Virus record (IMG/VR): IMGVR_UViG_2671180283_000027
Reading direction: 5' to 3' (one strand)
Length of the DNA: 32,641 bases
Source: a virus
Taxonomy: Duplodnaviria > Heunggongvirae > Uroviricota > Caudoviricetes
The number at the start of each line of letters is the position of its first letter. Positions within the stretch are counted from its first letter, which is position 1. The translations under genes were made by a program, and so were the position numbers. This document shows, in pieces, positions 3,099 to 31,998 of this stretch. The notes below the pieces were generated by a model. The model worked only from the letters and a program-made list of their open reading frames with translations. It made no database searches and was not told the origin of the DNA.

Positions 3099-3577
3099 TA
3101 TCCCGCCCCCGTCATACCCGTGAATTTAGTCGCCATACTGCCAGCCTTACCGATGAGCGATTCCGCCTGTTTACCGATATCGCCATAAAGCGCGGCCAGT
3201 GATTCATCAACGCGGATGAGCGACAGCGTAAAATCAATTTTCCGGGGTGTGCCGTCTGCAAAGAAAATACTCCCTGTTTCACTCACCTTGCTGATGACAT
3301 ACATGCCGTAAATCATGCCGGTGCCATCCAGCAACGGCCACGCCCGCCCCTCCTCTGCCATCAGCCTGAGCGTGGTCATCGTCAGCTTGCCGCCGGTCAG
3401 TTCGGGATAAAGCACACCGGCAAGCGTGATGTTTTCCTCACCCACACCGAGAAACTGAAAAGCGTCCCGTTTACCGATACGGGAATTTGACGGCCAGCGA
3501 TAATCTGATTCACGCTGCATGGTCTGGTGTGGCAGCGTCTGGCGCATAAAAACAAACATACCTAACGCGAGCATCAT
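3098..3577 (-). CDS. U: Tail protein gpU (159 aa)
   Basis: P2 order T-U-D; size matches gpU. Confidence 0.85.
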   Translation of the reverse strand: MMLALGMFVFMRQTLPHQTMQRESDYRWPSNSRIGKRDAFQFLGVGEENITLAGVLYPELTGGKLTMTTLRLMAEEGRAWPLLDGTGMIYGMYVISKVSETGSIFFADGTPRKIDFTLSLIRVDESLAALYGDIGKQAESLIGKAGSMATKFTGMTGAG

Positions 3578-3591
3578 TTTTCGTCACCTCC

Positions 3592-6039
3592 TTAACCGTC
3601 ATGCATCATGCTGGCACGGGCGCGCGCACGTTTATCCCGCTCGTATTTTTCGAGCGCATCCTGTAACTGGCGGTCGAGCTGTGTCCCCGGCGCAGTACCA
3701 CCCGTCAGGCTGATGTGATATTCGTTTTTACTCTGGTCTACATAAGAGCGGCCAGCCGGTGCCGTGACCGGCTGATAAGCCTGATAACCTGCATAAGAGC
3801 TGGTCGCCGGAATATAACCACCGCTGCCATACGTGGCGGCTTGAGTTCTGGCGGCTGTCTGGTCAAGTGTGTCTGACTCTTTGTTGATAACACCGAGTTT
3901 TTCCAGTACCCAGTCAATACCACTGCGCAGTTTGTTGAACGCATTAAGCGGCAGCATCAGCGCGTCAGCCAGTGCCTGCCCGAACATAACGCCCGTGTCA
4001 CGGCAACGGTTCAGGGTGTCCCGGGTGGCTTTGACCGGGGCAATCAGGTTTTTAAACCACTGCCACGCGGCCTGTAACTTTTCACCCAGCCAGTCAAACA
4101 CCGGTTTAAGTGGCGTGAACAGTTCCCCCACCGGCGCAAATGCCGCTTTCAGCCCTTCCACCACACCGCCAAAGAATGCGCTGACAGGCTCCCAGTATTT
4201 ACGGATAAGCAACGCCCCGGCGACAATGGCGGCCACCACGGCCACAACCGGCCAGCTAATCGCCCCGATGGCGGTTATAACAGCACTGCCAACCGTCGTG
4301 AAGATTGCCCCCATTGCGCCTGCTGCCGCGATGATGGCATTGATGCCGGTGATAACCGGCCAGGCTACGAGGCCAATGGCACCGATGACACCAGTCAGTG
4401 CCAGTGCACCACCGACAATGATGCCGATGGTTGACGCCAGTGATTTGTTTTTCTGGATCCAGCCGTCGAGTTTTAACACATACTTTGTGGCCGTCTGCGT
4501 GAGATTACGCAGTGCGCCTTCCTGCTGGTCAAACAGGTCAGTCCCCACCGCCTCATAAGCGGACTGAAACTCCTTAAAGTCACCGCCGAGGTTGTCCTGC
4601 ATGATATTTACCAGCTCTGCGGTCTTCCCGTCTGAGGCTTTAAACGCAGCGGTCAGTTTGTCCAGCTTTCCGGTTGAGGCGGCAGTCATCAGCACAGCGG
4701 CGGCTGAGCTGGCCTCCTCCCCGAAAATGGTTTTCATGTATTCAGCCTGCTGGGCAGTACCGAGCCGGTTTTTCTCAAAACTGGCCTGCATTTCTTTCAG
4801 AATGGTAAATATTGGCCGGGTGTTTCCCTTGCTGTCTGAGGTTTCCACTCCAAGCTCTTTGAGTGCATCCCATGCTTTTCCCGTCGGTGCCTGCAGGCGG
4901 CTTAACACGGCACGGCTTCCCGTCCCCGCCATTGAGCCTGTGATTTTTGCATCATGCAGCGCCCCGACCATTGCGGCGGTTTCTTCAATGCTGACACCGG
5001 CATTTTTTGCCACAGGTGCGGCATAGGTCAGCGCATCGCTCATGCCGTCAAAATCGGCGGCGGTTTTGTTCATCGTCATGGAGAGAACATCCCCGATATG
5101 AGCGACCTTATCGTTTGAAAGCTGAAAGGCGGATTTCATCCCCATCAGCAGGGCGGCGTTTTCTTCCATCGTGCGGCGGTTCGCCAGCGCCATATTCAGC
5201 GTGACCGGCGTTGCCGCCTGAATGGCATCAACATCCCCACCGGCTTTCGCAATGATAATCTGTGCACCGGCTGCATCATCTGCCGAGGCTGCGGTATTGT
5301 CGCCGAGCTGGCGCGCCTGCTTGCGGAGTGCGGTCATTTCGGCGGAGTCTTTTGCCACTCCCAGCACAGCCTGCAATTCTGAGTTTTTCTGCGCAAACTC
5401 ATAACCGGGCATCAGCAGCTTAACTCCGGCCATCGTTCCCGCAGCAGCAATCCCCACACCGGCAGCGCCCACCGAGACCATATTTCCGGCCAGCTCCTTT
5501 CCGGCCTGATAACGCTGTTTGACTGCGTTAAGTTTTGCCTGTTGCGCACTGACACGCGCCAGCGCGTCGCGCTGACGGTTAAGCTGTGCGGTGGTTTCAC
5601 TGATACGGTTTTTCAGTCCCTGCTCATCATGTGCAAGATTGCGGGTATTAATTCCCACAGCGGCCAGTTCCCGCTGCTGGCGTTTAACGGAATCCGTCAG
5701 GCGGTTATATTTCGCCTGTAAGTCCTCCGCCGCACGCTTTGCGGATTCCAGCACTTTCGCCTGAGCACGGGTCGGACGTTCGGTGTTTTTAAACTGTGTG
5801 GCAAGGGCTTCTGCTTCCTGCCGAGCCTTTTCAAGTGCATGACCAGTCACGGCGAGCTGTGCACTGGTCTTGCGGAATCCCTCAATACGGGATGCGTGAC
5901 CGTTCAGCTCGCGCAGTGATTTTTGTGTTTCCCGGATATCCCCCGACAGCGACTTGCTCGCTGTGCGGATGGATTTAAACGGGCGGGATGCCTGGTCAAC
6001 AGCCCTGAGCAATACCTGTAATTTTACATTGTTACTCAT
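3592..6039 (-). CDS. T: Tail tape measure protein gpT (815 aa)
   Basis: Long Ala/Gly-rich and coiled-coil protein of the P2 gpT length, between E/E' and U. Confidence 0.9.
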   Translation of the reverse strand: MSNNVKLQVLLRAVDQASRPFKSIRTASKSLSGDIRETQKSLRELNGHASRIEGFRKTSAQLAVTGHALEKARQEAEALATQFKNTERPTRAQAKVLESAKRAAEDLQAKYNRLTDSVKRQQRELAAVGINTRNLAHDEQGLKNRISETTAQLNRQRDALARVSAQQAKLNAVKQRYQAGKELAGNMVSVGAAGVGIAAAGTMAGVKLLMPGYEFAQKNSELQAVLGVAKDSAEMTALRKQARQLGDNTAASADDAAGAQIIIAKAGGDVDAIQAATPVTLNMALANRRTMEENAALLMGMKSAFQLSNDKVAHIGDVLSMTMNKTAADFDGMSDALTYAAPVAKNAGVSIEETAAMVGALHDAKITGSMAGTGSRAVLSRLQAPTGKAWDALKELGVETSDSKGNTRPIFTILKEMQASFEKNRLGTAQQAEYMKTIFGEEASSAAAVLMTAASTGKLDKLTAAFKASDGKTAELVNIMQDNLGGDFKEFQSAYEAVGTDLFDQQEGALRNLTQTATKYVLKLDGWIQKNKSLASTIGIIVGGALALTGVIGAIGLVAWPVITGINAIIAAAGAMGAIFTTVGSAVITAIGAISWPVVAVVAAIVAGALLIRKYWEPVSAFFGGVVEGLKAAFAPVGELFTPLKPVFDWLGEKLQAAWQWFKNLIAPVKATRDTLNRCRDTGVMFGQALADALMLPLNAFNKLRSGIDWVLEKLGVINKESDTLDQTAARTQAATYGSGGYIPATSSYAGYQAYQPVTAPAGRSYVDQSKNEYHISLTGGTAPGTQLDRQLQDALEKYERDKRARARASMMHDG

Positions 6040-8296: not shown

Positions 8297-8890
8297 CTAT
8301 TTGTCCCGGTTGGCTAAGGGATGACACAATTTATTCTTTGTCGCTGATGAGGGGAATTTTTTATAGAGCGTGGACAGGCCAATATCAAAAATCAGCGCCA
8401 CGCGTTGACGTGATTCACCCGCAGCCAGCAACCGTCCTGCCTGTTCCCACTCACTCGCGGTGAGCTTCGGACGTCTGCCACCAATACGACCTTTGGCTCT
8501 GGCCGCTTCCAGTCCGGCGCGAGTCCGCTCGACAATGAGTTCTCGTTCCATTTCAGCCAGGGCACCCATCACATGAAAGAAAAAACGTCCCATCGGCGTG
8601 CTGGTATCAATGGCATCCGTCAGGCTGCGAAAATTAATGCCGCGTTCGCGCAGCTCCTCAACCAGAATAACCAGATGCCGCATACTACGCCCCAGCCGGT
8701 CCAGCTTCCAGACTACCAGTGTATCCCCCTCCGATAATGTCCTGAGCAGTTTTTTCAGTCCCGGCCTGTCGGACTTCGTGCCGCTGATTTTATCCTCAAA
8801 AATCAGCTCACATCCTGCACACTCCAGCGCGTTACGCTGCAATTCCGTATTCTGGTCATTTGTTGACACGCGGACATAGCCAATAAGCAT
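8297..8890 (-). CDS. Serine DNA invertase (Hin/Gin/Cin/Pin family, 197 aa)
   Basis: N-terminus MLIGYVRVSTNDQ with the catalytic Ser, resolvase/invertase motifs, C-terminal HTH; sits beside an inverted-repeat tail-fibre cassette. Confidence 0.9.
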   Translation of the reverse strand: MLIGYVRVSTNDQNTELQRNALECAGCELIFEDKISGTKSDRPGLKKLLRTLSEGDTLVVWKLDRLGRSMRHLVILVEELRERGINFRSLTDAIDTSTPMGRFFFHVMGALAEMERELIVERTRAGLEAARAKGRIGGRRPKLTASEWEQAGRLLAAGESRQRVALIFDIGLSTLYKKFPSSATKNKLCHPLANRDK

Positions 8891-8917
8891 GATGGATCCC
8901 CTGAATAAAAACCGGGG

Positions 8918-9424
8918 ATGATGCCAGTTAGCCGTAATCTCTGCATTTTCTTAAACGTTGGTTTGGGAGAAGGCTCCGCGCTACCGGTGGGCGTACCGGT
9001 TCCGTGGCCTCTCCCGAACCCACCACAGGGATGGCTTAAATATAACGGTGCGCCCTTCGATAAAAACATATATCCGAAATTAGGTGCAGTTTATCCGGCT
9101 GGCGTATTACCCGACTTACGCGGCGAGTTTATTCGCGGCTGGGATGATGGGCGGGGAGTGGATGCAGGGAGAATCATATTAGCTCAGCAGGGTGATGCTA
9201 TTAGAAATATTACAGGTTTCGTGAGTGGTTCTTCTGGCGTTTCGTTTGATAGTTTTTCTGGTGCTTTTTACGATTCGGGGGTAAGAAGCGGCAGAAGGCC
9301 TGAGAGTACGACTATTGTTGATATGAATGATGATTTTGCTTTTGATGCTTCCCGGGTAGTGCCAACTGCAAATGAAAATCGCCCGCGAAATCTTGCATTC
9401 AATTACATAGTTCGTGCAGCTTAA
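8918..9424 (+). CDS. Silent alternative tail-fibre C-terminal cassette (Sv'-like; no credible own start)
   Basis: Shares the repeat-encoded segment with H and the conserved C-terminal VPTANENRPRNLxFNYIVRA, but has a different ~50-aa variable stretch; the opening codons are probably an ORF-caller artefact. Confidence 0.6.
   Translation: MMPVSRNLCIFLNVGLGEGSALPVGVPVPWPLPNPPQGWLKYNGAPFDKNIYPKLGAVYPAGVLPDLRGEFIRGWDDGRGVDAGRIILAQQGDAIRNITGFVSGSSGVSFDSFSGAFYDSGVRSGRRPESTTIVDMNDDFAFDASRVVPTANENRPRNLAFNYIVRAA
8946..8971. other. Invertase crossover site (hix/gix/cix-like 26-bp site), invertase-proximal
   Basis: TTTTCTTAAACG-TT-GGTTTGGGAGAA: imperfect palindrome with half-site TTCTCnnAAACC and central TT/AA, at the outer edge of the inverted repeat. 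Confidence 0.65.
8946..9213 (+). repeat. Inverted repeat arm A (~265 bp) of the tail-fibre inversion cassette
   Basis: Near-identical by eye to the reverse complement of 10395-10661; encodes the same ~83 aa (LGEGSALPVGVPVPWPLPNPPQGW...AIRNITG). Confidence 0.85.
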
Positions 9425-9431
9425 ATGAAAA

Positions 9432-9468
9432 GCCGTCTTAATGGGGTCAGTCCATAATGACGGCTTAA
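9432..9468. terminator. Hairpin between the convergent alternative cassette and the tail fibre assembly gene (possible bidirectional terminator)
   Basis: 15-bp imperfect inverted repeat AAGCCGTCTTAATGG / CCATAATGACGGCTT around a short loop. Confidence 0.35.
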
Positions 9469-9477
9469 TCATCTTTA

Positions 9478-10083
9478 TCAAATTGAGGGCGGCTCAGGTA
9501 GTATCGCAGTTGGAAAATCTGAGGGTTTAATGGCATTCAGCGCATCAATATAATCAAGCCACAGGTTAAACTTGCTTGTTTCTGTTTCGCTCATTCGATT
9601 GAGTTGTAACTTTGAAGGCCAGTTATTTTTATTAATGACCGCATTAGCCTCATCAATCAGCGCCTGAATTTTCATTTCAAATGCCTGAACGTCAGCAACT
9701 CTTTTTGCATCGATATCCGTTATCCACTCAGTACCATTCCAGACATCAAATTGAGTTTCTGGCGCAATTGTGGTGGTATTTTCTGGAAGCTCTCCTAAAA
9801 ACCGAACAGTGATTTTCTCCCCTGTATCAGTTTTATAAACTTCTGCTTCACGGTGATCTTCAACATACTCCCAGCCGTTCAGATCTTCATTACGACAAAT
9901 AGCAAAGCCAGCCTTGAATTTGCCGGGTTTATCAGTACAGGAATGGGCAGGCACGCCCACGCCTTCTGCAAGATATTCAACGGTTGATGACAGGTACTCA
10001 CGGGTGATGGCATCATAGTTATAAACAGTGATTTCACCTGCCGATGATGCGATCCCATATGTATTCAAAATAGCTTCACTCAT
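9478..10083 (-). CDS. G: Tail fibre assembly chaperone (gpG/Tfa-like, ~201 aa)
   Basis: Directly downstream of H; C-terminal region typical of Tfa proteins; start refined to the ATG at 10083 with an AAGGA ribosome-binding site (the ORF track starts at an upstream GTG). Confidence 0.8.
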   Translation of the reverse strand: MSEAILNTYGIASSAGEITVYNYDAITREYLSSTVEYLAEGVGVPAHSCTDKPGKFKAGFAICRNEDLNGWEYVEDHREAEVYKTDTGEKITVRFLGELPENTTTIAPETQFDVWNGTEWITDIDAKRVADVQAFEMKIQALIDEANAVINKNNWPSKLQLNRMSETETSKFNLWLDYIDALNAIKPSDFPTAILPEPPSI

Positions 10084-10155
10084 TCTCTTATCCTTCGTGC
10101 TGGGGCAAGATTCTACTATACTGAGCGTCCTCACTTATTCTTGATATTGATGTTG

Positions 10156-11475
10156 TTACATAGCCCTCACAATGTAATTAAATGACAGGTTACGTGGGCG
10201 GTTTTCATTTGCAGTTGGAACCATCAAGGAAGCATCAAAAAAAAGCGCAGCAAATCTATCGTCTGTCGCTCCAATAGCAACATCTACTTGAGCGGCATAC
10301 GATCCAAACTCACCGTCAGTGCGGAAAGCACCTGTTGCCCCTGCATTAAAAAGCCTTGCTGATGTAGCTGCATTTCGTCCCTGAACCCCACCAGTGATAT
10401 TTCTAATAGCATCACCCTGCTGAGCTAATATGATTCTCCCTGCATCCACTCCCCGCCCATCATCCCAACCGCGAATAAACTCGCCGCGTAAGTCGGGTAA
10501 TACGCCAGCCGGATAAACTGCACCTAATTTCGGATATATGTTTTTATCAAAGGGTGCACCGTTATATTTAAGCCATCCCTGTGGTGGGTTCGGGAGGGGC
10601 CACGGCACCGGTACGCCCACCGGCAGTGCCGAACCTTCTCCCAAACCAAGGTATGCGAGAAGACCGGCAACATCCTTTCCACTCAAATGAGTCAGCGTCT
10701 CATCCAGTGGCTGCTTACCTGACAGCGCATTGTTAATGGTGGTACTGAATTTCGGGTCATTGTTAATGGCTGCGGCAATTTCTTTCAGTGTGTCCAGCGT
10801 GGCTGGCGCACCGTTAATCAGAGCGGTAATAGCGGCCTGAACAAACTCAGTGGTCGCAATCCGCGTGGTGTTATTTCCTGCGGCAGGCGTCGGCGCTTTT
10901 GGTTCTCCGGTAAATGTCGGATTATGTTTCTGTGCATACTGGGTATGAGGATCCTGTGCGGCAATGTGGTTTCTCATCTGGTCATCCACATACAGCCTTA
11001 ATTCCAGGACTTCATCATCCACGTATTTACGGGTCGCCAGTACCACCGACGGGTCGATTTTCAGCGTAATAGCTTCGGTATTCGTGACAACCAGAATCAT
11101 GCGGATAGTCTGGGTACGACCACTGCCTTCCTGCAACTGCGGTTTGTACGTTTCCGGGCAGTTCGCCACCGCAATGAGTACGCCTTCATCATCATAAAGC
11201 CCAATCTCACGGATCCAGAATCCGCCCTCGTTCTCAGGGATGATTTGCTCCGCAATAATCTGGCTCTGGTTGTTCGGGTCAACACTCAGAAGATTCAGTG
11301 GCGCGATGCGTTTCTGGTTAATCAGTTTTGTCTGTGCCGGGTCTGGTGTCGGCAAGACACCATTCGCATCACCAACGGCCATTTGCGTCAGATTCAGCTT
11401 ACTGCCGAGCATCGTCGCGTTAGCCAGCCGTGCTGCGCCCTGATTAGTCAGAATGGCGTAGTATTTCACTGTCAT
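10156..11475 (-). CDS. H: Tail fibre protein gpH (439 aa) with an invertible C-terminal region
   Basis: N-terminus recognisably similar to P2 gpH; downstream of I; C-terminal third lies inside the invertible segment. Confidence 0.85.
   Translation of the reverse strand: MTVKYYAILTNQGAARLANATMLGSKLNLTQMAVGDANGVLPTPDPAQTKLINQKRIAPLNLLSVDPNNQSQIIAEQIIPENEGGFWIREIGLYDDEGVLIAVANCPETYKPQLQEGSGRTQTIRMILVVTNTEAITLKIDPSVVLATRKYVDDEVLELRLYVDDQMRNHIAAQDPHTQYAQKHNPTFTGEPKAPTPAAGNNTTRIATTEFVQAAITALINGAPATLDTLKEIAAAINNDPKFSTTINNALSGKQPLDETLTHLSGKDVAGLLAYLGLGEGSALPVGVPVPWPLPNPPQGWLKYNGAPFDKNIYPKLGAVYPAGVLPDLRGEFIRGWDDGRGVDAGRIILAQQGDAIRNITGGVQGRNAATSARLFNAGATGAFRTDGEFGSYAAQVDVAIGATDDRFAALFFDASLMVPTANENRPRNLSFNYIVRAM
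10395..10661 (-). repeat. Inverted repeat arm B (~265 bp), within the 3' third of gene H
   Basis: Reverse complement matches 8946-9213 with a few mismatches. Confidence 0.85.
10636..10661. other. Invertase crossover site inside the tail fibre gene H
   Basis: TTCTCCCAAACC-AA-GGTATGCGAGAA: half-sites match 10 of 12; identical central dinucleotide to the site at 8946-8971. Confidence 0.65.
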
Positions 11476-20408: not shown

Positions 20409-22181
20409 ATGACCATCACCACAGACACCACTCTTTTACACGACCCGCGTCGTCAGGCGGCGCTGCTGTACTGGCAGGGGTTTTCCGTGCCGCAGATTGC
20501 CGCCATGTTGCAGATGAAACGCCCGACGGTGCAGAGCTGGAAACAGCGCGACGGCTGGGACAGCGTTGCCCCCATCAGCCGTGTCGAAATGAGTCTGGAA
20601 GCGCGGCTGACCCAGCTCATCATCAAACCGCAGAAAACCGGCGGTGACTTCAAGGAAATTGACCTGCTGGGACGCCAGATTGAACGACTGGCACGGGTCA
20701 ACCGCTACAGTCAGACCGGCAACGAGGCAGACCTTAATCCGAACATCGCTAACCGCAACAAAGGCGGGCGGCGCAAACCGAAAAAGAATTTTTTCAGTGA
20801 CGAGGCCATCGAAAAGCTGGAGCAGATTTTCTTTGAGCAGTCTTTCGACTATCAGTTGCACTGGTATCGCGCCGGGCTTGAGCACCGCATCCGCGATATC
20901 CTGAAATCCCGCCAGATTGGCGCGACGTTTTATTTTTCCCGCGAGGCGCTGCTGCGCGCCCTGAAAACCGGTCATAACCAGATTTTTCTGTCGGCCAGTA
21001 AAACGCAGGCGTATGTGTTCCGCGAATACATCATCGCCTTTGCCCGGCTGGTTGACGTTGACCTGACCGGTGACCCGATTGTCCTGGGCAATAACAGCGC
21101 AAAACTGATTTTTCTCGGCACCAACTCCAACACCGCGCAGAGCCATAACGGCGACCTGTACGTCGACGAGATTTTCTGGATCCCGAATTTTCAGGTACTG
21201 CGTAAGGTGGCATCAGGTATGGCCTCACAGAGTCACCTGCGCTCGACCTATTTCTCCACCCCGTCCACGCTGGCGCACGACGCCTATCCGTTCTGGTCCG
21301 GTGAACTGTTTAACCGGGGACGCGCCAGCGCCGCCGAACGCGTGGAAATCGACGTCAGTCATAACGCCCTTGCCGGAGGTCTTCTCTGTGCGGACGGCCA
21401 GTGGCGGCAGATTGTCACCATTGAGGACGCCCTGAAAGGTGGCTGCACACTGTTCGACATTGAGCAGCTCAAACGTGAAAACAGCGCCGACGATTTTAAA
21501 AACCTGTTCATGTGTGAATTTGTTGACGACAAGGCGTCGGTGTTCCCGTTCGAGGAGCTGCAACGCTGCATGGTCGACACGCTGGAAGAATGGGAAGACT
21601 ATGCGCCGTTTGCCGCAAATCCGTTCGGCTCACGTCCGGTATGGATTGGTTACGACCCGTCACACCGTGGCGACAGCGCCGGATGCGTGGTGCTGGCACC
21701 GCCGGTGGTGGTCGGTGGCAAATTCAGAATACTTGAGCGTCACCAGTGGAAAGGCATGGACTTTGCCACTCAGGCGGAATCCATCCGCAAACTCACCGAA
21801 AAATACAACGTCGAATACATCGGTATTGATGCCACCGGCCTTGGTGTCGGCGTGTTCCAGCTCGTGCGCTCGTTCTATCCCGCCGCGCGCGATATCCGCT
21901 ACACGCCGGAAATGAAGACCGCAATGGTGCTCAAGGCAAAAGACGTTATCCGCCGTGGCTGTCTGGAATATGACGTCAGCGCCACCGACATCACCAGCTC
22001 GTTTATGGCTATCCGCAAGACCATGACCAGCAGCGGACGCAGCGCCACCTATGAGGCCAGCCGCAGCGAGGAAGCCAGCCACGCCGACCTCGCCTGGGCG
22101 ACCATGCACGCCCTGTTAAATGAGCCACTCACCGCCGGTATCAGCACCCCGCTGACATCCACCATTCTGGAGTTTTACTGA
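20409..22181 (+). CDS. P: Terminase large (ATPase) subunit gpP (590 aa)
   Basis: Start refined to ATG at 20409 with a GAGG ribosome-binding site; 590 aa as in P2 gpP. Confidence 0.9.
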   Translation: MTITTDTTLLHDPRRQAALLYWQGFSVPQIAAMLQMKRPTVQSWKQRDGWDSVAPISRVEMSLEARLTQLIIKPQKTGGDFKEIDLLGRQIERLARVNRYSQTGNEADLNPNIANRNKGGRRKPKKNFFSDEAIEKLEQIFFEQSFDYQLHWYRAGLEHRIRDILKSRQIGATFYFSREALLRALKTGHNQIFLSASKTQAYVFREYIIAFARLVDVDLTGDPIVLGNNSAKLIFLGTNSNTAQSHNGDLYVDEIFWIPNFQVLRKVASGMASQSHLRSTYFSTPSTLAHDAYPFWSGELFNRGRASAAERVEIDVSHNALAGGLLCADGQWRQIVTIEDALKGGCTLFDIEQLKRENSADDFKNLFMCEFVDDKASVFPFEELQRCMVDTLEEWEDYAPFAANPFGSRPVWIGYDPSHRGDSAGCVVLAPPVVVGGKFRILERHQWKGMDFATQAESIRKLTEKYNVEYIGIDATGLGVGVFQLVRSFYPAARDIRYTPEMKTAMVLKAKDVIRRGCLEYDVSATDITSSFMAIRKTMTSSGRSATYEASRSEEASHADLAWATMHALLNEPLTAGISTPLTSTILEFY

Positions 22182-23215
22182 TGAGCAAGAAAAAAGGGAA
22201 AACACCGCAACCTGCGGCAAAAAAAATGACCGCCAGCGCCCCGAAAATGGAGGCATTCACCTTTGGTGAACCGGTGCCGGTACTCGACCGCCGTGACATT
22301 CTGGATTACGTCGAGTGCATCAGTAACGGCAGATGGTATGAGCCACCGGTCAGCTTTACCGGTCTGGCAAAAAGCCTGCGTGCTGCCGTACATCACAGCT
22401 CACCGATTTACGTCAAACGTAATATTCTGGCTTCAACGTTTATTCCGCACCCGTGGCTTTCCCAGCAGGATTTCAGCCGCTTTGTGCTGGATTTTCTGGT
22501 GTTCGGTAATGCGTTTCTGGAAAAGCGTTACAGCACCACCGGTAAGGTCATCAGACTGGAAACCTCACCGGCAAAATATACCCGCCGTGGCGTGGAGGAG
22601 GATGTTTACTGGTGGGTGCCGTCCTTCAACGAGCCGACAGCCTTCGCGCCCGGCTCCGTGTTTCACCTGCTGGAGCCGGATATTAATCAGGAGCTGTACG
22701 GCCTGCCGGAATATCTCAGCGCCCTTAACTCTGCCTGGCTGAATGAGTCGGCCACGCTGTTCCGCCGCAAGTATTACGAAAACGGCGCACATGCCGGATA
22801 CATCATGTACGTCACTGATGCCGTGCAGGATCGCAACGATATCGAAATGCTTCGCGAAAACATGGTGAAGTCAAAAGGCCGCAACAACTTTAAAAACCTG
22901 TTTCTCTATGCCCCACAGGGGAAAGCCGACGGCATTAAAATTATCCCGCTCAGTGAAGTGGCAACGAAGGACGATTTTTTTAATATCAAAAAAGCCAGCG
23001 CCGCTGACCTGCTGGACGCGCACCGCATCCCCTTTCAGTTGATGGGCGGCAAGCCGGAGAACGTCGGGTCGCTGGGCGATATTGAGAAAGTGGCAAAGGT
23101 CTTTGTCCGCAATGAACTTATCCCGTTACAGGACAGGATCCGCGAGATAAACGGCTGGCTCGGCCAGGAGGTCATCCGCTTTAAAAACTACTCACTGGAC
23201 ACTGACAACGGCTGA
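22181..23215 (+). CDS. Q: Portal protein gpQ (344 aa)
   Basis: 344 aa as in P2 gpQ; start overlaps the P stop. Confidence 0.9.
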   Translation: MSKKKGKTPQPAAKKMTASAPKMEAFTFGEPVPVLDRRDILDYVECISNGRWYEPPVSFTGLAKSLRAAVHHSSPIYVKRNILASTFIPHPWLSQQDFSRFVLDFLVFGNAFLEKRYSTTGKVIRLETSPAKYTRRGVEEDVYWWVPSFNEPTAFAPGSVFHLLEPDINQELYGLPEYLSALNSAWLNESATLFRRKYYENGAHAGYIMYVTDAVQDRNDIEMLRENMVKSKGRNNFKNLFLYAPQGKADGIKIIPLSEVATKDDFFNIKKASAADLLDAHRIPFQLMGGKPENVGSLGDIEKVAKVFVRNELIPLQDRIREINGWLGQEVIRFKNYSLDTDNG

Positions 23216-23383: not shown

Positions 23384-23402
23384 GTGCTTTCCCCGCCTCG
23401 CC
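23384..23402. other. cos site (19-nt cohesive-end sequence)
   Basis: GTGCTTTCCCCGCCTCGCC is the reverse complement of GGCGAGGCGGGGAAAGCAC, which I recall as the P2 cohesive end; lies in a C-rich tract just past Q. Confidence 0.7.
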
Positions 23403-23477
23403 CGCCCGCTTCATGGGGCGGTTTTAATGCAACAATGCACCTTCTCTAAAACAGGCAGGATAAACTATGAACGATAA

Positions 23478-23516
23478 AAATCCCCAACAGCCAGTGCATG
23501 CAAATACATGCACTGG
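23478..23516 (-). terminator. Rho-independent terminator of the cargo gene
   Basis: Perfect 10-bp stem CCAGTGCATG / CATGCACTGG (23491-23516) with a 6-nt loop, followed on the minus-strand transcript by a TTTTT run. Confidence 0.5.
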
Positions 23517-23533
23517 TATGCAAATTATAAGCC

Positions 23534-25885
23534 TTAAAGTTCTGTATATATTAGGCGTAGCATATCCTGCGCATAACTTTTCATATCTTCATCAGTCCAT
23601 TCACGGATAACGTGCATAGGCTCATTGAGTGCAGTTCTAAACCCATGAATTCTTCTGGCCGTCTCCTCTTCCAAAATACCATCTTCAGCCAGTCGATTAA
23701 TACACACAGAAAAATCCGTTCTATCATTTAAGTTGCAGTCTGTCAGTTGTTTGCGATAACGAGAACGGAATTCTGATTCAAGATATGGCCTTAAAGATAG
23801 TATTATTGTCTTATCAGTATCCACACCATTTATAAAATCAACAATCCTCTCATAGGATCTCTCATGGTCTGAAGCTATTAATTGCTCTACCTTCAGCGGT
23901 TCAAAATTAGAACCGTCTTGACCTTGTTTGATCTGAAGAATTCTATCCAAATTAAATTTTTGAGATGTCTTTGCTGCCATTCCTTTATAGTGTGTAGTAA
24001 TAAACATCTGTTTTACATAAGGCTGTAATTCATACAACTTCTGCAAAATACAAGATATTCTTTCCTCATCAAAACTTGTTACAGGATCATCCATAATAAG
24101 AATAGCTTTTGATTTCTCATCATTAGGTAACAAGTAAATTTTAGAAAGAAAGATGCACAAAGCCAAAGCTCGGCGATCTGACTCACTAAACAAACAATTA
24201 AGTTTGTTTTTTCCAACTGACTTCCCATTAAATGAAACGTCAAGTTCATAAACAATTTTTGTACCCTGCCTGTTTATTTTTTTATTTATAGAAAATTTAC
24301 TAGATCCAACAGAACAGAACAGAGAATTAATGTGCTCAAAATATTTGTTTAAAAATTGCTCCTGGCATTCCTCTAATGTTTTCTTCTTCTCATTATAGTT
24401 TTTTTCCCTAATATCTATTTCTTTTTTCAATTCAAGATATTCTCGACAATCTGGCTCAAGCAATAATCTTTTTTTATTAGATTCCCACTGCCCAAGATCT
24501 TTTTGATAGATTCCCAGTAATACATCTAATTTGGTGGAATTGATACTTTCTTTATACTTCACCAACTCATCATTGAGCTGATTAATAATGCTATTGTATG
24601 ATTCCAATTTGCCATGAATTTCATGCTCAAATTGTAGAAGAGCCGAAAAATCAAACCCCTTCATTTCGTTGTATACAGCTAATTCTTTCTCATCATATAT
24701 ACACTCCAGTGATTGCTGAGCCTTAAGTAGATCTTGGTTAAATGTCAATATATCATTTCTTACTTGATTATAAATAGCACAACATGACTCAAACCTTCCA
24801 TTATTACTTAATTCATTTTTTATCTCATTCTCTAAATACTGTGACAAAACATCAATGTTTTTGCTATGTACATCATCAATTACATTTAATGAGATAAATG
24901 AAAAATCAAGCCGCCTTATTTCTTTTAATTCTTTTTTTGTACTTTCAATAAAGCGCATAAATGACTCATCAAATGAATCCTTATAAGCACTAATCAGCTC
25001 TTTTGATTCTCCTGATATACTCTGACCGCAAAATGGACATATTTCTGTGGCCATACCAAGCCCATTTGAGATCCATCCATTAAAATGATCGTGAGCCTTT
25101 ATTCTCTCTTTATGTCGCTCTAATATAGAAAGTGCATCGTCATGAATTGTAGCCATTCCAGAAGAAAGACATTTATTAACCCTAATTGAAATATCTTTCA
25201 ACTTTGGTGTACAGTTAATTAAATTAAACAACGGCCTTGCTTTAATATATTTGACGGCTGTTTTCTTCTTTTCAACTTCTTGTATTGACTTAATAAGTTC
25301 ATTTATTTTTGAGTCAACGCAATCATAATCTGTTATGACAGGCTCACTATTAGCATACTCATCAACGTTATCAATTTGGTGTGATTGAATTAAATCTTTT
25401 TTACTTCTTAACGAACCTCTTAAACTTCTTAATTCTGCATTCTCCTTTTCCAGAGCTTCAAAAGCAGCAACATTGTCTTCACCCAAAATAAATGCAGTAA
25501 CACATTCAGAGTTTTCTCGATTAGATACTGTACCTGCCATTACATTTCTATGAACAAAACTCTGATCAAAGATATATAATTTAGAATCTGGTGGTGGTAA
25601 TCCTGACCATTTATCTACATAAAATGAAACAACTCTATTTGAACTCCCCTCTGTGAATTGTAAATCAATCTTTGGAGTTACTTCACCATCTCCCTCCAGA
25701 ATAGTCTTTCTGTTAACAACCAATTCAGGAGTATTCGTTGATAAAGAATAAAAGATGTCACAAAGAGTACTTTTACCATGTCTATTTTCACCGTAGATAA
25801 CATTCATGTTATTAAACTCATAAGAGCTGGAGCGAGCTTTAATATAGTTACCTACGCCCTCTATTAATTTAATCCTCTTTAACAT
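23534..25885 (-). CDS. Cargo: Rad50/SMC-like ABC ATPase (783 aa) with a CxxC-containing coiled-coil insert and a C-terminal putative nuclease domain; candidate RloC/PrrC-like anti-phage protein
   Basis: ATG with AAGGA ribosome-binding site; Walker A GENRHGKST (~32-40), Q-loop candidate (~Q108), coiled-coil region ~130-560 with CPFC at ~283-286, signature-like LFSESDRRALAL (~565-576), Walker B ILIMDD (~595-600), D-loop SFD, H-loop THY (~631-633), then a ~140-aa C-terminal domain with RPYLE (R699/E703) and downstream His; strongly AT-rich compared with the rest of the prophage. Confidence 0.7.
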   Translation of the reverse strand: MLKRIKLIEGVGNYIKARSSSYEFNNMNVIYGENRHGKSTLCDIFYSLSTNTPELVVNRKTILEGDGEVTPKIDLQFTEGSSNRVVSFYVDKWSGLPPPDSKLYIFDQSFVHRNVMAGTVSNRENSECVTAFILGEDNVAAFEALEKENAELRSLRGSLRSKKDLIQSHQIDNVDEYANSEPVITDYDCVDSKINELIKSIQEVEKKKTAVKYIKARPLFNLINCTPKLKDISIRVNKCLSSGMATIHDDALSILERHKERIKAHDHFNGWISNGLGMATEICPFCGQSISGESKELISAYKDSFDESFMRFIESTKKELKEIRRLDFSFISLNVIDDVHSKNIDVLSQYLENEIKNELSNNGRFESCCAIYNQVRNDILTFNQDLLKAQQSLECIYDEKELAVYNEMKGFDFSALLQFEHEIHGKLESYNSIINQLNDELVKYKESINSTKLDVLLGIYQKDLGQWESNKKRLLLEPDCREYLELKKEIDIREKNYNEKKKTLEECQEQFLNKYFEHINSLFCSVGSSKFSINKKINRQGTKIVYELDVSFNGKSVGKNKLNCLFSESDRRALALCIFLSKIYLLPNDEKSKAILIMDDPVTSFDEERISCILQKLYELQPYVKQMFITTHYKGMAAKTSQKFNLDRILQIKQGQDGSNFEPLKVEQLIASDHERSYERIVDFINGVDTDKTIILSLRPYLESEFRSRYRKQLTDCNLNDRTDFSVCINRLAEDGILEEETARRIHGFRTALNEPMHVIREWTDEDMKSYAQDMLRLIYTEL

Positions 25886-26151
25886 TCTTTTTCCTTAATT
25901 AATTGTTAAGTTTCAATTACAACCAACACAATAAACTTAAGAAAATCAATATAATGCACAACAACAAAACTCACAATACCTTACACGCTCGTTACCTACT
26001 GCAAACTTATCTTGCAATACTAATAATCAAGTTTGAAATCATAATATCACCACATGAAATTGCCATATCGCAGAGGCTCCTTACTCGACAACTAAAATGT
26101 TTATACTCCAAAAAGTAAGTTTCTTACTTTTTAACCGCATTAATTTCTACA

Positions 26152-28419
26152 TCACCTAAAACCTATCCACTCATCAGCGACCGGATACGTGAATTGTTTC
26201 CCGTCATAATTTACAGTCGCGCCACGCGCCAGCGCCTCAAGCTCCCATCGCTGCGGCCTGATACCGTTCTGAGCAAGGTCAACGCGGATACGGGTGATTT
26301 GCATTCTTTCCGACCGGGTCAGTCTGGCCGATGGTGCAATTTCATGTGGTTTTAACGGGCTTCCGTTTCTTTGCTGACGGTTTGGTCTTCTCAGTCCGTG
26401 TTTTAATGCGCTTCTGAGCGCCCTCACAACCTCCGGGTCATTCCATTCGATAACACCGTCATCAACCAGATTAAGCACTGCTGCGGCGTGCTCAGAAGGT
26501 GTGGGAGCCGGTAACGAAGTATCACCACCGTTGAGCTTTCCACAGTTATTGACAGGACTCCGAGGCGCGGCGATGCCGCTTTTTAAAGTCAAAGGCTCAA
26601 CGACCGGCACTTTCGGCACAATGCGCCAGTCCGTGGTTCTGGTGATATGAATATGACGCGCGCCGAGATGCGGCGCGTAAATGCCGACCACTCTCTCGAC
26701 TTCTTCCTCGTACTCGTTAACGTCATCCGACGGGCTACGGGCGACCCTGACAGTCTGACAATCGCGCGGGACATTTGCCCCGCCCTGCGCGCTGATATAC
26801 AGCGCAAAATCGCCACTGTCTGCGGCGGCGCGTGCAGCCTCCACGCGTTCGTCAAATTCATCAGCAATGCTGACGCCGCGAGGCAATTTACGTAGCTCAC
26901 GGTAAGCTCCCATTGTCGGCAGGCCAACCGTTTTAAATTGCGGAATGCGCCACGTTGACGCCCATGCGGTAACAGCCGCCGCAGTATCTTTCAGCGGTCT
27001 GCCGGTATCGTTATCGAGCTGACCATCCAGTGCATAGCCGTCGATATTTTTTGAAATGTATTTCGCGATATATCCCGCAGCACCGCCCCGGTTAAGGTGT
27101 TTTGCCTGAAAACGGTTTCGCGCGGCTCCTCTTTCGTCGCCATCCTCTTTGAGCGCATAGCGACGCATGATTTCGATAATCTGGTTACGCTGGCGTGGAT
27201 TACAAAAAAGCATCATATGCCAGTGCGGCGTTCCGTCGTGGTGTGGTTCGACGACACGCAAACCGTAGACCTGTAAATCATTATCCTTGAATGCCGTGCG
27301 CATCAGGCTCCAGATACGGCAGAGATAACGCTGCGCATCCTTTGGATTAAATGCCTCATCGTTCCAGCCGTGATTAAGCTGGACGGTTTTATTTTCGCCT
27401 TTTCCGACCTGACGTGTCGGGTGATACTTTGACGGCGTGGTCAGCGTGATAAACATCCCCACATCACCCTCTGCGGCGGCGTAACGCTCAATACCGGCGA
27501 TGGTGTTCATCAGCTCCATCCGGCGAATTTCAGGATTAGAAATACTGCCCATCACCTTGCTGATAAGGTCGATGCGCTCGCCGGTTTCCCTGTTTTCGAG
27601 GTCACACGATTTAAGAAATTCCAGATTTGCCTGGCGGCGCGCACGCACATCACGAATGGCGTGTTTACTGGCATAAGGAGAACGGTCTTTATTGACCTCC
27701 CCGACAGCTATCAGTAACGCTTCATGCCAGCGCATACGCTGGCCTTTAAGCTGATGAGTCCACCACTCATCGTTAAACAGACGGGCAATGGCAGAATATG
27801 CCTGCCTCGTGGTCATCTGCCCTTTACGGTATTTTTTCCAGTAGAGAGGGGAAATATTGAAAGCACGTGCAGCGCCAGCAACATGACCATAGAGGTGAGC
27901 CTGCGCCTCATCCGTAAACAGCGATTCTTTTTCGCCATGCGCATCCACCCAGGCATCGCTGAGTTCCTCATACATCATGAAAAGCTGCGATGAGATACGG
28001 GCAGCAAACTTTTTCAGCTCCTTGTCATTCATTCCCGGCAGGCGCGCATAGTGGTCACGCTCTGCCAGAAACAGCAACGACGCGTCGGTGTTCATTTCAT
28101 GGCGCTGATTCACACGCTCAATGCGCGGCCATAAACGACGCTGAAAAGTGGATGTGAGGAAATAAAACCCGTGTACCGGGCTTTTATTGCGCCGGATGTA
28201 GTCATAGCGTGAAGTAAACAGCGAGCGCAAAAAGTAAGGCAGGCGGTTAATCGTGGATAAAACACCTTGCACCTGACGCATCTCGTCACGTGTAAGGGGT
28301 CTTTCGCGCCCGACGGCCTCGCGTGGCGCGTTCCATGCATAAGCACCGGTAAACGCCTTACCGGTGCCTGCAGCAAATGCTGAAGGAGGGACAAAACGCC
28401 CGGAGGCTTTAACGGCCAT
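26152..28419 (-). CDS. A: Replication initiation endonuclease gpA (rolling-circle, ~755 aa)
   Basis: Recognised as P2 gpA-like; contains the HWH motif region; start refined to the ATG at 28419 (MAVKASGRF...); the ORF track starts at an upstream TTG. Confidence 0.85.
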   Translation of the reverse strand: MAVKASGRFVPPSAFAAGTGKAFTGAYAWNAPREAVGRERPLTRDEMRQVQGVLSTINRLPYFLRSLFTSRYDYIRRNKSPVHGFYFLTSTFQRRLWPRIERVNQRHEMNTDASLLFLAERDHYARLPGMNDKELKKFAARISSQLFMMYEELSDAWVDAHGEKESLFTDEAQAHLYGHVAGAARAFNISPLYWKKYRKGQMTTRQAYSAIARLFNDEWWTHQLKGQRMRWHEALLIAVGEVNKDRSPYASKHAIRDVRARRQANLEFLKSCDLENRETGERIDLISKVMGSISNPEIRRMELMNTIAGIERYAAAEGDVGMFITLTTPSKYHPTRQVGKGENKTVQLNHGWNDEAFNPKDAQRYLCRIWSLMRTAFKDNDLQVYGLRVVEPHHDGTPHWHMMLFCNPRQRNQIIEIMRRYALKEDGDERGAARNRFQAKHLNRGGAAGYIAKYISKNIDGYALDGQLDNDTGRPLKDTAAAVTAWASTWRIPQFKTVGLPTMGAYRELRKLPRGVSIADEFDERVEAARAAADSGDFALYISAQGGANVPRDCQTVRVARSPSDDVNEYEEEVERVVGIYAPHLGARHIHITRTTDWRIVPKVPVVEPLTLKSGIAAPRSPVNNCGKLNGGDTSLPAPTPSEHAAAVLNLVDDGVIEWNDPEVVRALRSALKHGLRRPNRQQRNGSPLKPHEIAPSARLTRSERMQITRIRVDLAQNGIRPQRWELEALARGATVNYDGKQFTYPVADEWIGFR

Positions 28420-28684
28420 ATGAGCCAAAAGCCTCTGAACAACGCCTGCTGAGTTGCTCAACCTGCGCGTTTAAATCAGCAAAAGACTTTGCGCTTCCGG
28501 TCAGAATATCGTGATGCATCAGGCCGGAAACGAGCTGGCTTAATTTCGGATAATAACCAACCACCGCCAGCCATTCCTGACCGGCGTTTTTACCGCTTTC
28601 CGCTCTCTTTTTCTCGTGGAGAATAAACTGAAAGCTGTCACTGGTAACGACATAACGTTCGCCAATTTCAATACGAATACTCAT
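28409..28684 (-). CDS. Hypothetical early-operon protein (91 aa)
   Basis: ATG start overlaps the stop of the upstream gene; sits in the B-to-A small-ORF block typical of P2-like phages. Confidence 0.6.
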   Translation of the reverse strand: MSIRIEIGERYVVTSDSFQFILHEKKRAESGKNAGQEWLAVVGYYPKLSQLVSGLMHHDILTGSAKSFADLNAQVEQLSRRCSEAFGSYGR

Positions 28685-30984: not shown

Positions 30985-31998
30985 ATGGCAATCAAAAAAC
31001 TCGATGATGGTCGATATGAAGTGGACATCCGCCCTACTGGACGTAACGGAAAACGCATCCGTAGGAAGTTTGATAAGAAAAGCGAAGCTGTCGCTTTCGA
31101 AAAATACACGTTGTACAACCACCACAATAAAGAATGGCTATCAAAACCAACAGACAAACGACGTCTGTCGGAACTGACACAGATCTGGTGGGATTTAAAG
31201 GGTAAACACGAAGAGCATGGGAAATCTAATCTTGGAAAAATTGAAATCTTCACAAAAATAACGAATGACCCATGCGCATTTCAAATCACGAAATCCCTTA
31301 TCAGCCAGTACTGCGCCACCCGAAGAAGTCAGGGTATTAAACCTTCGAGTATCAATCGTGATTTAACATGTATTAGCGGCATGTTTACAGCCCTGATTGA
31401 AGCGGAGTTATTCTTTGGTGAGCACCCTATCAGAGGGACAAAGAGGCTTAAGGAGGAAAAACCAGAAACAGGCTATCTCACACAGGAAGAAATTGCCTTA
31501 CTGCTTGCAGCACTTGACGGCGACAATAAAAAGATTGCGATTCTTTGCCTGAGTACAGGAGCACGTTGGGGAGAAGCAGCTCGTTTGAAAGCAGAAAATA
31601 TCATCCATAACCGCGTCACGTTTGTTAAAACGAAAACAAACAAACCACGCACCGTCCCGATCTCAGAGGCTGTTGCCAAAATGATCGCGGATAACAAACG
31701 AGGTTTTTTATTCCCTGATGCTGATTACCCTCGCTTCAGACGAACAATGAAAGCAATAAAACCGGATTTGCCAACGGGGCAAGCCACACATGCACTAAGG
31801 CACAGCTTTGCCACTCATTTCATGATTAATGGAGGAAGTATTATCACGCTACAACGGATACTAGGTCACACGCGGATTGAGCAAACTATGGTTTACGCTC
31901 ATTTTGCGCCAGAGTACCTTCAGGACGCCATTTCTCTTAATCCGCTAAGAGGTGGTACTGAGGCCGAGAGTGTCCACACAGTGTCCACAGTAGAGTAA
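30985..31998 (+). CDS. int: Tyrosine integrase (P2 Int-like, 337 aa)
   Basis: 337 aa as in P2 Int; C-terminal R...HxxR...Y catalytic region (HALRHSFATHF ... TMVYAHF); next to attR. Confidence 0.9.
   Translation: MAIKKLDDGRYEVDIRPTGRNGKRIRRKFDKKSEAVAFEKYTLYNHHNKEWLSKPTDKRRLSELTQIWWDLKGKHEEHGKSNLGKIEIFTKITNDPCAFQITKSLISQYCATRRSQGIKPSSINRDLTCISGMFTALIEAELFFGEHPIRGTKRLKEEKPETGYLTQEEIALLLAALDGDNKKIAILCLSTGARWGEAARLKAENIIHNRVTFVKTKTNKPRTVPISEAVAKMIADNKRGFLFPDADYPRFRRTMKAIKPDLPTGQATHALRHSFATHFMINGGSIITLQRILGHTRIEQTMVYAHFAPEYLQDAISLNPLRGGTEAESVHTVSTVE

Follow-up and report, generated by a model that had tools for sequence, protein, structure and literature searches.

Cargo segment and genomic position

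The stretch of DNA analysed here (the window) is the 32,641-nucleotide IMG/VR record IMGVR_UViG_2671180283_000027, and our subject is one gene in it that encodes a 783-amino-acid (aa) RloC-like protein, in which a Rad50-type ABC ATPase is joined to a C-terminal domain of predicted HEPN fold. The gene lies on the minus strand at 23534-25885, starts with ATG, and is assigned by profile matches to Pfam AAA_13 and to the PADLOC candidate PDC-S06; this open reading frame (ORF) is exactly the one proposed in a preliminary description of the sequence, made without database searches. It forms a single-gene cargo island of foreign base composition in a P2-like Escherichia coli prophage, at the defence hotspot close to cos.

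The contrast in composition is sharp. Sliding-window G+C falls to 0.30-0.37 over 23501-26000 and is 0.52-0.62 on either side. In exact figures the ORF has 32.8% G+C (26.3% at third codon positions), the 266-nucleotide (nt) spacer upstream of it (25886-26151) has 30.1%, and the window outside the island has 53.5%; the segment 23432-26151 as a whole has 0.328 against 0.535 elsewhere. Since the remaining dips of the window go no lower than 0.42-0.47, the cargo is its sole sharply AT-rich stretch, as had been judged by eye in the preliminary description.

On one side the cargo adjoins gene A, the replication endonuclease gene (26152-28461, minus strand; Pfam Phage_GPA, E 3.6e-123); on the other lies the phage portal protein gene (22181-23215, plus strand), identified from the ORF list and Pfam and preceded by a terminase-like ORF. 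Between portal gene and cargo, at 23384-23402 on the minus strand, the reverse complement of GGCGAGGCGGGGAAAGCAC can be read directly in the window; this is the P2 cos cohesive-end sequence. The start first given for the cargo, 23403, is thus the first base past cos. A comparison of the cos-to-A interval across P2-like prophages had been proposed as well; carried out by blastn with the P2-like prophage of strain APEC O1, in which the slot holds a different cargo, it shifted these limits: homology is lost after 23431 and returns from 26172, which sets the exchanged, variable low-G+C segment at 23432-26171. The right breakpoint therefore falls within gene A, some 20 nt in from its 3' end (26152-26171), and because homology to APEC O1 begins only at 26172, the last six or so codons of gpA and its stop codon move with the island.

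The position between gpA and gpQ, beside cos, is a documented hotspot, at which 18,150 E. coli loci show 1,650 arrangements of genes (Rousset et al. 2022, PMC9122126). Reference P2 keeps old and tin there, and many validated defence systems, in strong enrichment, have been found at this site, about a quarter of the loci carrying non-defence cargo such as partition systems (PMC9122126). Both the placement in the old/tin slot and the assignment to a phage defence hotspot were therefore correct in the preliminary description. The ORF list of the island offers no second credible ORF, and scans for RNA families and for repeats yielded neither an Rfam family nor tandem repeats; neither an RNA antitoxin nor ToxI-like repeats nor any other known RNA family was found in it, and the window contains no tRNA genes.

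ATPase head and coiled-coil insert

The Pfam AAA_13 profile aligns with residues 12-634 (E 2.4e-33), scoring 116 bits where the cut-off is 36, and the alignment breaks off at profile position 571 of 713. In PADLOC the PDC-S06 model PDLC04895 covers the protein completely (E 6.5e-154; residues 1-783 against profile positions 1-780 of 784), and two other models match in part: LmuB (E 4.7e-20) and AriA (E 4.6e-6), the latter only across residues 505-634 of the ABC C-lobe. No NCBIfam family exceeded its cut-off, PHROGs gave nothing meaningful, and a PDB sequence search with the whole protein returned the RecF signature region only. Conservation was read from an alignment of 51 homologues, on which an AlphaFold2 model of the protein was also built (mean pLDDT 83.9).

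From the secondary structure of this model and the invariant residues, the ABC head is split into an N-lobe of residues 1-122 (25520-25885, minus strand), with the Walker A motif GENRHGKST at 25766-25792, and a C-lobe of residues 526-665 (23891-24310, minus strand), to which the RecF signature-region matches in PDB and NCBIfam also point. The C-lobe motifs, all on the minus strand, are a signature-like LFSESDR (24173-24193), the Walker B motif ILIMDDP (24083-24103) and the switch histidine His632 in TTHY (23990-23992). Invariant in all 51 homologues are G37, K38 and T40 of Walker A; S567 and D570 of the signature-like FSESDRR; D599 and D600 of Walker B; and H632. In Foldseek against the PDB, Rad50 ranked at the top (7zr1, E 1e-11), ahead of SMC heads and Lamassu LmuB, and a fold search of BFVD gave just generic Rad50/SbcC/SMC-like viral ATPases. 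The split Rad50-type ATPase of the preliminary description is thus upheld by profile, fold and conservation alike.

Between the lobes, residues 123-525 (24311-25519, minus strand) make up a helical or coiled-coil insert of about 400 aa, delimited by the Foldseek matches and by the modelled helices, the long ones of which span 123-167, 187-215, 364-402, 414-447, 451-475 and 477-525. The insert carries one zinc-hook-like CPFC motif (C283-x2-C286; 25028-25039, minus strand), which in the model lies in a loop that joins helices 265-276 and 293-304. C283 and C286 are invariant, and P284, F285, G287 and Q288 are at least 90% conserved, as one would expect of the long hook-bearing insert first proposed; by analogy with Rad50 the two cysteines presumably bind zinc.

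C-terminal HEPN domain

Residues 666-783 (23537-23890, minus strand) form a separate domain, all helical in the AlphaFold2 model, in agreement with the all-alpha fold by which Anantharaman et al. (2013) define HEPN domains. The HEPN proteins listed for this fold include the toxins 8xdj and 7ae2, MtlR, Csx1, LsoA (score 7.1), Csm6 (7.0), AbiA (7.0), RnlA (6.9), the Gifsy-1 protein HepS (6.5) and Cas13b. Both structural expectations of the preliminary description, an ABC head and a HEPN-like C-terminal fold, are hence borne out by modelling. At the sequence level, Pfam DUF4145, a member of the HEPN clan (Anantharaman et al. 2013), gave weak matches in six of 19 C-terminal domains (best E 3e-4), and a PDB sequence search with a profile of the domain returned only noise (S20 and SRP54, E > 0.2).

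The conserved polar residues of the domain lie in two motifs, R699-x3-E703 (23777-23791) and N754-x3-H758 (23612-23626), both on the minus strand. R699 is invariant in the 51 homologues, and E703, N754 and H758 are each at least 90% conserved. Of the Arg-Glu-His residues named in the preliminary description, R699, E703 and H758 stand; H747 is not conserved, and the partners of the Arg-Glu pair are N754 and H758. E703-x3-R707 agrees with the Ex3[KR] pattern of HEPN helix 1; H758 is preceded by N754 (x3) and R750 (x7), a spacing that differs from the HEPN Rx4-6H motif. The HEPN versions of PrrC and RloC are themselves atypical, and HEPN RNases in general act independently of metals and leave 2',3'-cyclic phosphate ends (Anantharaman et al. 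2013). By this analogy the domain would be an RNase, with tRNA as its probable target.

Comparison with RloC and related systems

RloC, known from Geobacillus kaustophilus and Acinetobacter baylyi, is an anticodon nuclease that excises the wobble nucleotide and is inhibited by Zn2+ (Davidov & Kaufmann 2008; Klaiman et al. 2012, 2014). Its defining features are ABC ATPase motifs like those of PrrC, an insert of Rad50-like coiled coil that bears a CXXC zinc hook, and, near the C-terminus, an Arg-x3-Glu-x36-52-His triad, often with Ser before the His (Davidov & Kaufmann 2008, PMC2610378). GkaRloC of Geobacillus kaustophilus has 804 aa, its CXXC at about 288-291 (with a hook mutant, C291G) and the triad R692/E696/H737 (PMC2610378); its zinc hook, together with its DNA-dependent ATPase, acts as an internal switch that silences or activates the anticodon nuclease (PMC3458546). 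The native RloC of Acinetobacter baylyi is activated in uninfected cells by inducers of double-strand breaks, nalidixic acid among them, and cuts tRNA-Glu and tRNA-Gln (PMC3874168). The protein described here resembles RloC in size (783 against 804 aa), in the ABC motifs, in the single CXXC of its coiled-coil insert (283-286 against about 288-291), in its C-terminal triad (R699/E703/H758 against R692/E696/H737) within a HEPN-fold domain, and in being a solo gene that lacks a restriction-modification partner. The likeness to the PrrC/RloC triad that was noticed at the outset is therefore real: R699-x3-E703...H758 fits the published Arg-x3-Glu...His pattern (PMC2610378).

With PrrC, the E. coli anticodon nuclease linked to the type Ic restriction-modification system EcoprrI, the protein shares an N-terminal ABC ATPase, a C-terminal HEPN anticodon nuclease with an Arg-Glu-His triad and, by analogy, the logic of abortive infection. 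PrrC, unlike it, has no coiled-coil or zinc-hook insert, has its catalytic His at position 356 (PMC2610378), and is always found within an hsd locus that silences it (PMC2610378, PMC3458546). The 783-aa protein has an insert of 400 aa, its island holds no restriction-modification genes, and for both reasons it is not PrrC. A typical PrrC is about 400 aa long. Six C-domain matches of about 400-460 aa, which might have represented a PrrC-like short form, were read and proved to be N-terminally truncated fragments.

Rad50/SbcC and LmuB are the closest fold matches to the head and coiled coil, and Rad50 also has a CXXC hook, but they work with separate nuclease partners (Mre11/SbcD and LmuA) and have no fused HEPN domain. 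Lamassu, Rad50-Mre11 and SbcCD were ruled out as identities of the system, as no partner gene occurs in the island or beside the homologues examined. OLD and PARIS were likewise ruled out, there being no TOPRIM match in Pfam or PADLOC and the AriA match being weak and confined to the C-lobe. P2 Old nevertheless is instructive: it occupies the same slot and also fuses an ABC ATPase sensor to a nuclease effector in one protein, but its effector is a TOPRIM domain and its OLD/Gabija/PARIS-type ATPase lacks a long coiled coil and a CXXC. Between Old and the 783-aa protein no sequence relationship was detected beyond the P-loop (the weak AriA match only). P2 Old has been reported to be an abortive, ABC-ATPase-gated tRNase (bioRxiv 10.64898/2026.07.10.737580), which makes for a close functional analogy at the same slot.

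An 'RloC-like' AAA_13 protein has in fact been described at the P2 hotspot: it is entry 5 of the systems in Table S5B of Rousset et al. (2022), with the figure 420 alongside, which we take as a count of loci. It differs from the 783-aa protein. This canonical type has 742 aa at the Q-A locus of Enterobacter phage ENT4 and 738 aa in the APEC O1 P2-like prophage (WP_000423308.1), whose gene (NC_008563, 925932-928148) sits in the gpA-gpQ slot in the orientation opposite to that of the 783-aa gene. The APEC O1 protein probably is APECO1_4465, the prototype of prophage ABC-HEPN proteins in Anantharaman et al. (2013), judging from gi order and the description in that paper rather than from an accession match; the same authors set prophage ABC-HEPN families apart from RloC and PrrC on computational grounds. 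The P2-hotspot RloC-like proteins (735-742 aa) share the gpA-gpQ locus and the architecture with the 783-aa protein and also fall under PADLOC PDC-S06. They differ in matching sub-model PDLC04886 instead of PDLC04895 and in being common, whereas the 783-aa gene was found in 23 of 5,426 complete E. coli genomes. The APEC O1 prophage carries, in addition, a 'Sll1717 family P-loop ATPase' gene and an IS21 element between its tail-fibre and sheath genes.

At the sequence level the two lineages are far apart. The canonical proteins fit AAA_13 end to end with 360-378 bits (374 for the APEC O1 type), against 116 bits for the 783-aa protein, and a Streptococcus prophage protein annotated as 'translation-disabling ACNase RloC' also fits the profile end to end. 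In pairwise alignment the 783-aa protein and the APEC O1 protein are only 23% identical over 377 aa, all of them outside the C-terminal domain. Full-length profile-profile comparison with the canonical RloC-like family, in contrast, gave a probability of 99.8% (E 9e-30) and ran into the C-terminal domain, where LRpFlE pairs with MRnIlE and LN.pmH with INrgSH, so that the motifs are in register with the MRNILE-x39-SH motif of the canonical proteins. The C-domain profile gave no signal against the single ENT4 and Javan105 'RloC' sequences, the signal appearing only against a profile. By sequence the C-terminal domain is strongly diverged, and the stretch from Glu to His holds about 14 residues more. 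The early end of the AAA_13 match, the profile results and the cluster search given below together place the 783-aa protein in a distinct and fairly small AAA_13 subfamily that has the architecture and the catalytic residues of RloC.

The preliminary description left it undecided whether the family is a described one or new; it is not new. PADLOC already holds a full-length hidden Markov model for it (PDC-S06), and in IMG its homologues are labelled 'wobble nucleotide-excising tRNase'. This kind of protein is known from the prophage ABC-HEPN families of 2013, the RloC-like AAA_13 protein of the P2 hotspot of 2022 and the PADLOC candidate PDC-S06; the member described here has a notably diverged effector domain, and the find will hardly surprise a specialist.

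Distribution and selection

Among 5,426 complete E. coli genomes, 23 carry the island and its flanks over their full length, and matches to the flanks alone were obtained in 2,153. Two alleles are found in E. coli: one is at least 99% identical in DNA to the window, the other about 86.5% (83% between the proteins). The ORF is intact in the 23 genomes and in both alleles. The copies are invariably annotated 'AAA family ATPase' and lie between genes annotated 'replication endonuclease' and 'phage portal protein'; a protein identical to ours is present in public databases under E. coli accessions with 'AAA family ATPase' as its only name. Megablast against phage genomes recovered the 232-nt Q/cos flank and nothing else, and a tblastn search of 50,697 phage records with the protein gave no match, from which we conclude that the gene is absent from deposited phage genomes. 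Between the two E. coli alleles dN/dS is 0.19 overall (0.21 for the N-lobe, 0.19 for the coiled coil, 0.12 for the C-lobe and 0.175 for the C-terminal domain), which marks the gene as functional and subject to purifying selection.

Next in similarity, at 35-41% identity, come proteins of about 780 aa in marine gammaproteobacteria (Vibrio, Shewanella, Aliikangiella, Zhongshania and Nitrincola), and several of these proteins bear the automatic IMG label just mentioned. An exhaustive HMMER search with the C-domain profile over 1.84 billion cluster representatives (50% identity) returned 303 clusters at E <=1e-3, and among the best 150 of these the full-length matches nearly all have 750-800 aa with the domain at the C-terminus.

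Five contexts of homologues in four organisms were inspected, and in each the gene is solo, with no conserved neighbour and no LmuA, LmuC, Mre11 or SbcD partner. The Vibrio parahaemolyticus homologue lies in a region (JAGJLF010000004, 91798-110134) that also encodes nSTAND3, VspR, a DNA polymerase of family B, a DEAD/ResIII helicase of 1199 aa and a NERD-kinase-UvrD protein of 1679 aa, surroundings that look like a defence island. The Aliikangiella homologue is near a Shedu SduA_C gene; a metagenomic one is flanked by RelE/MqsA-like and VapBC pairs; another lies downstream of integrase-like genes; and the Zhongshania homologue is surrounded by metabolic genes.

Of the E. coli chromosomes listed, nine out of 15 (e.g., NZ_CP173249, NZ_CP074701 and NZ_CP101858) have the locus at record positions of about 2220-5222, and in the one record inspected position 1 falls within the coding sequence of the P2 'replication endonuclease', the feature starting at 1. 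It looks as if assembly-rotation software mistook gpA for the chromosomal start gene.

Flanking signals

A Shine-Dalgarno-like AAGGA lies 7 nt before the ATG of the cargo gene. The claim of an AT-rich upstream region of its own holds for the composition of the spacer, and a 60-nt block within it (25943-26002, minus strand) is identical at 59 of 60 positions in two alleles that differ at about 12-14% of positions overall (DNA identity about 86-88%). This block contains a promoter-like TTGTGA-N17-TATATT (25948-25976) and may be a conserved promoter or regulatory element; in a sigma-70 promoter scan of the upstream region, promoter-like hexamers were no commoner than in shuffled sequence, and the claim as a whole is upheld only in part. 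The proposed terminator fares similarly. A strong 11-bp hairpin does lie at 23491-23516 on the minus strand, 18 nt past the stop codon, and the RNA fold is terminator-like; it is non-canonical in that the U-run is displaced, and a scan for consensus terminators made no call there on the minus strand. About 20 nt past the stop codon of gene A, at 26110-26132 (minus strand), a short AT-rich hairpin precedes a run of T (AAAAAGTAAGAAACTTACTTTTT) and could end transcription of the early operon ahead of the cargo gene.

Proposed function and alternatives

Our preferred interpretation, to which we assign a probability of roughly 0.6, is that the 783-aa protein is a self-contained RloC-like anticodon nuclease acting by abortive infection, with sensor and effector in one chain. 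In the lysogen a low level of protein would be made from the gene's own promoter and stay latent, the hook and ATPase module restraining the HEPN domain by analogy with the Geobacillus and Acinetobacter enzymes. Upon infection the Rad50-like head would bind DNA ends, abnormal DNA or replication intermediates of the incoming phage, and ATP hydrolysis would turn the nuclease on. The putative HEPN site (R699, E703, N754 and H758) would then cleave tRNA anticodon loops in a metal-free reaction that leaves 2',3'-cyclic phosphate ends; translation would halt and the infection be aborted. What the sequence analysis shows is the gene and its place, its foreign base composition, the purifying selection on it, the domain architecture with its folds, and the conserved residues; that the protein binds zinc, responds to DNA, cuts RNA, has tRNA as its target and defends against phages is inferred. 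In a 2025 preprint, an AAA ATPase of E. coli that carries the PDC-S06 flag is noted as probably a genuine defence protein.

Several points weigh against this interpretation. In the papers on RloC that were consulted its antiviral role is itself proposed, not demonstrated (PMC2610378, PMC3458546), and we found no experiment in the literature on this protein or on any PDC-S06 member, the reports on PDC-S06 being detections only. The Glu-His spacer has 54 residues, as compared to 40 in GkaRloC and a published range of 36-52, and H758 is preceded by Met where RloC frequently has Ser. The AAA_13 match stops at position 571 of 713 (570 in the Vibrio homologue), so that the C-terminal third of the profile misses the C-terminal domain, whereas canonical RloC-like proteins reach 712-713; and hhalign of the C-domain by itself is weak (probability 25%, E 8e-4), with the same motif register. 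R750, the Arg that precedes H758 by eight residues in HEPN style, is not invariant. GkaRloC, AbaRloC and EcoPrrC were compared by their published descriptions, with the canonical RloC-like AAA_13 proteins as a sequence proxy, and both the convergence of R699, E703, N754 and H758 on one site and the apical position of CPFC are putative, being read from conservation and not from model coordinates.

The whole lineage of 303 clusters, with a HEPN domain that Pfam AAA_13 leaves uncovered, might be no functional orthologue of RloC and instead a separate ABC-hook-HEPN defence family that has a trigger and an RNA target of its own, which we consider possible but doubtful. If it were so, the E. coli P2 copy would be the first experimentally tractable member of an unvalidated PADLOC candidate class, and also a direct test of phage protection by RloC-type proteins, as proposed since 2008.

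Less probable still is a distinct ABC-HEPN system in which an active HEPN RNase serves defence but has another target (mRNA, rRNA or a different tRNA site), another trigger (a phage protein, for instance) or both. The C-terminal domain is the sequence outlier of the protein, its Glu-His interval being about 14 residues longer, and the separation of prophage ABC-HEPN families from RloC and PrrC (Anantharaman et al. 2013) sets a precedent; the profile homology to RloC-like proteins, which runs from end to end and keeps the catalytic motifs in register, and an overall architecture and hook position equal to those of GkaRloC speak for the RloC model instead. We rate as improbable that the gene is a prophage stress or addiction module, shutting off translation after host DNA damage or stabilising the prophage without excluding phages. 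The activation of RloC by nalidixic acid and other double-strand break inducers in uninfected cells (PMC3874168), the fact that an antiviral role of RloC is so far a proposal (PMC3458546) and the share of about one quarter of P2 hotspot loci with non-defence cargo (PMC9122126) would suit such a module, but validated defence systems are strongly overrepresented at the hotspot (PMC9122126), homologues lie among defence genes in unrelated bacteria, and the island has no antitoxin-like partner ORF or repeat RNA. Very unlikely, finally, is a non-catalytic HEPN-like domain (binding RNA or a ligand, or structural) on a DNA-acting Rad50/SMC/Lamassu-like ATPase or an inert remnant: the partial PADLOC match and the Foldseek matches to LmuB hint at it, but the invariance of R699 and at least 90% conservation of E703, N754 and H758, a dN/dS of 0.175 in the domain, the lack of an LmuA, LmuC, Mre11 or SbcD partner in the island or beside homologues, and an ORF intact in 23 complete genomes and two alleles all contradict it.

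Two distantly related ABC-HEPN lineages and the ABC-TOPRIM tRNase Old alternate at one P2 slot, and this alternation points to repeated selection there for translation shut-off gated by an ATPase. RloC-type ABC-HEPN proteins are widespread, and PDC-S06 is a computational candidate only. The copy described here resides in a natural E. coli P2-like prophage, has its own upstream region, and sits at a hotspot from which lysogens are known to express cargo, which makes for easy cloning and challenge with standard coliphage panels.

Other features of the prophage

At the start of the window lies a host gene for a U32 peptidase (1-1362), presumably yegQ-like in view of the yegQ-ogrK site in K-12, and the prophage integrase lies towards the other end (30985-31998); with these two at its ends the window covers nearly the whole of a P2-like prophage at that attachment site. 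A serine-recombinase DNA invertase is encoded at 8297-8890 on the minus strand (Resolvase, E 3e-52, and HTH_7). It adjoins a 168-aa ORF with a Collar domain (8918-9424), on the strand opposite to that of the tail fibre gene (10156-11475), as well as a tail-fibre assembly gene (9478-10134), and G+C goes down to 0.42-0.46 across 8297-10134. This region resembles an invertible host-range switch of the Gin/Cin type.

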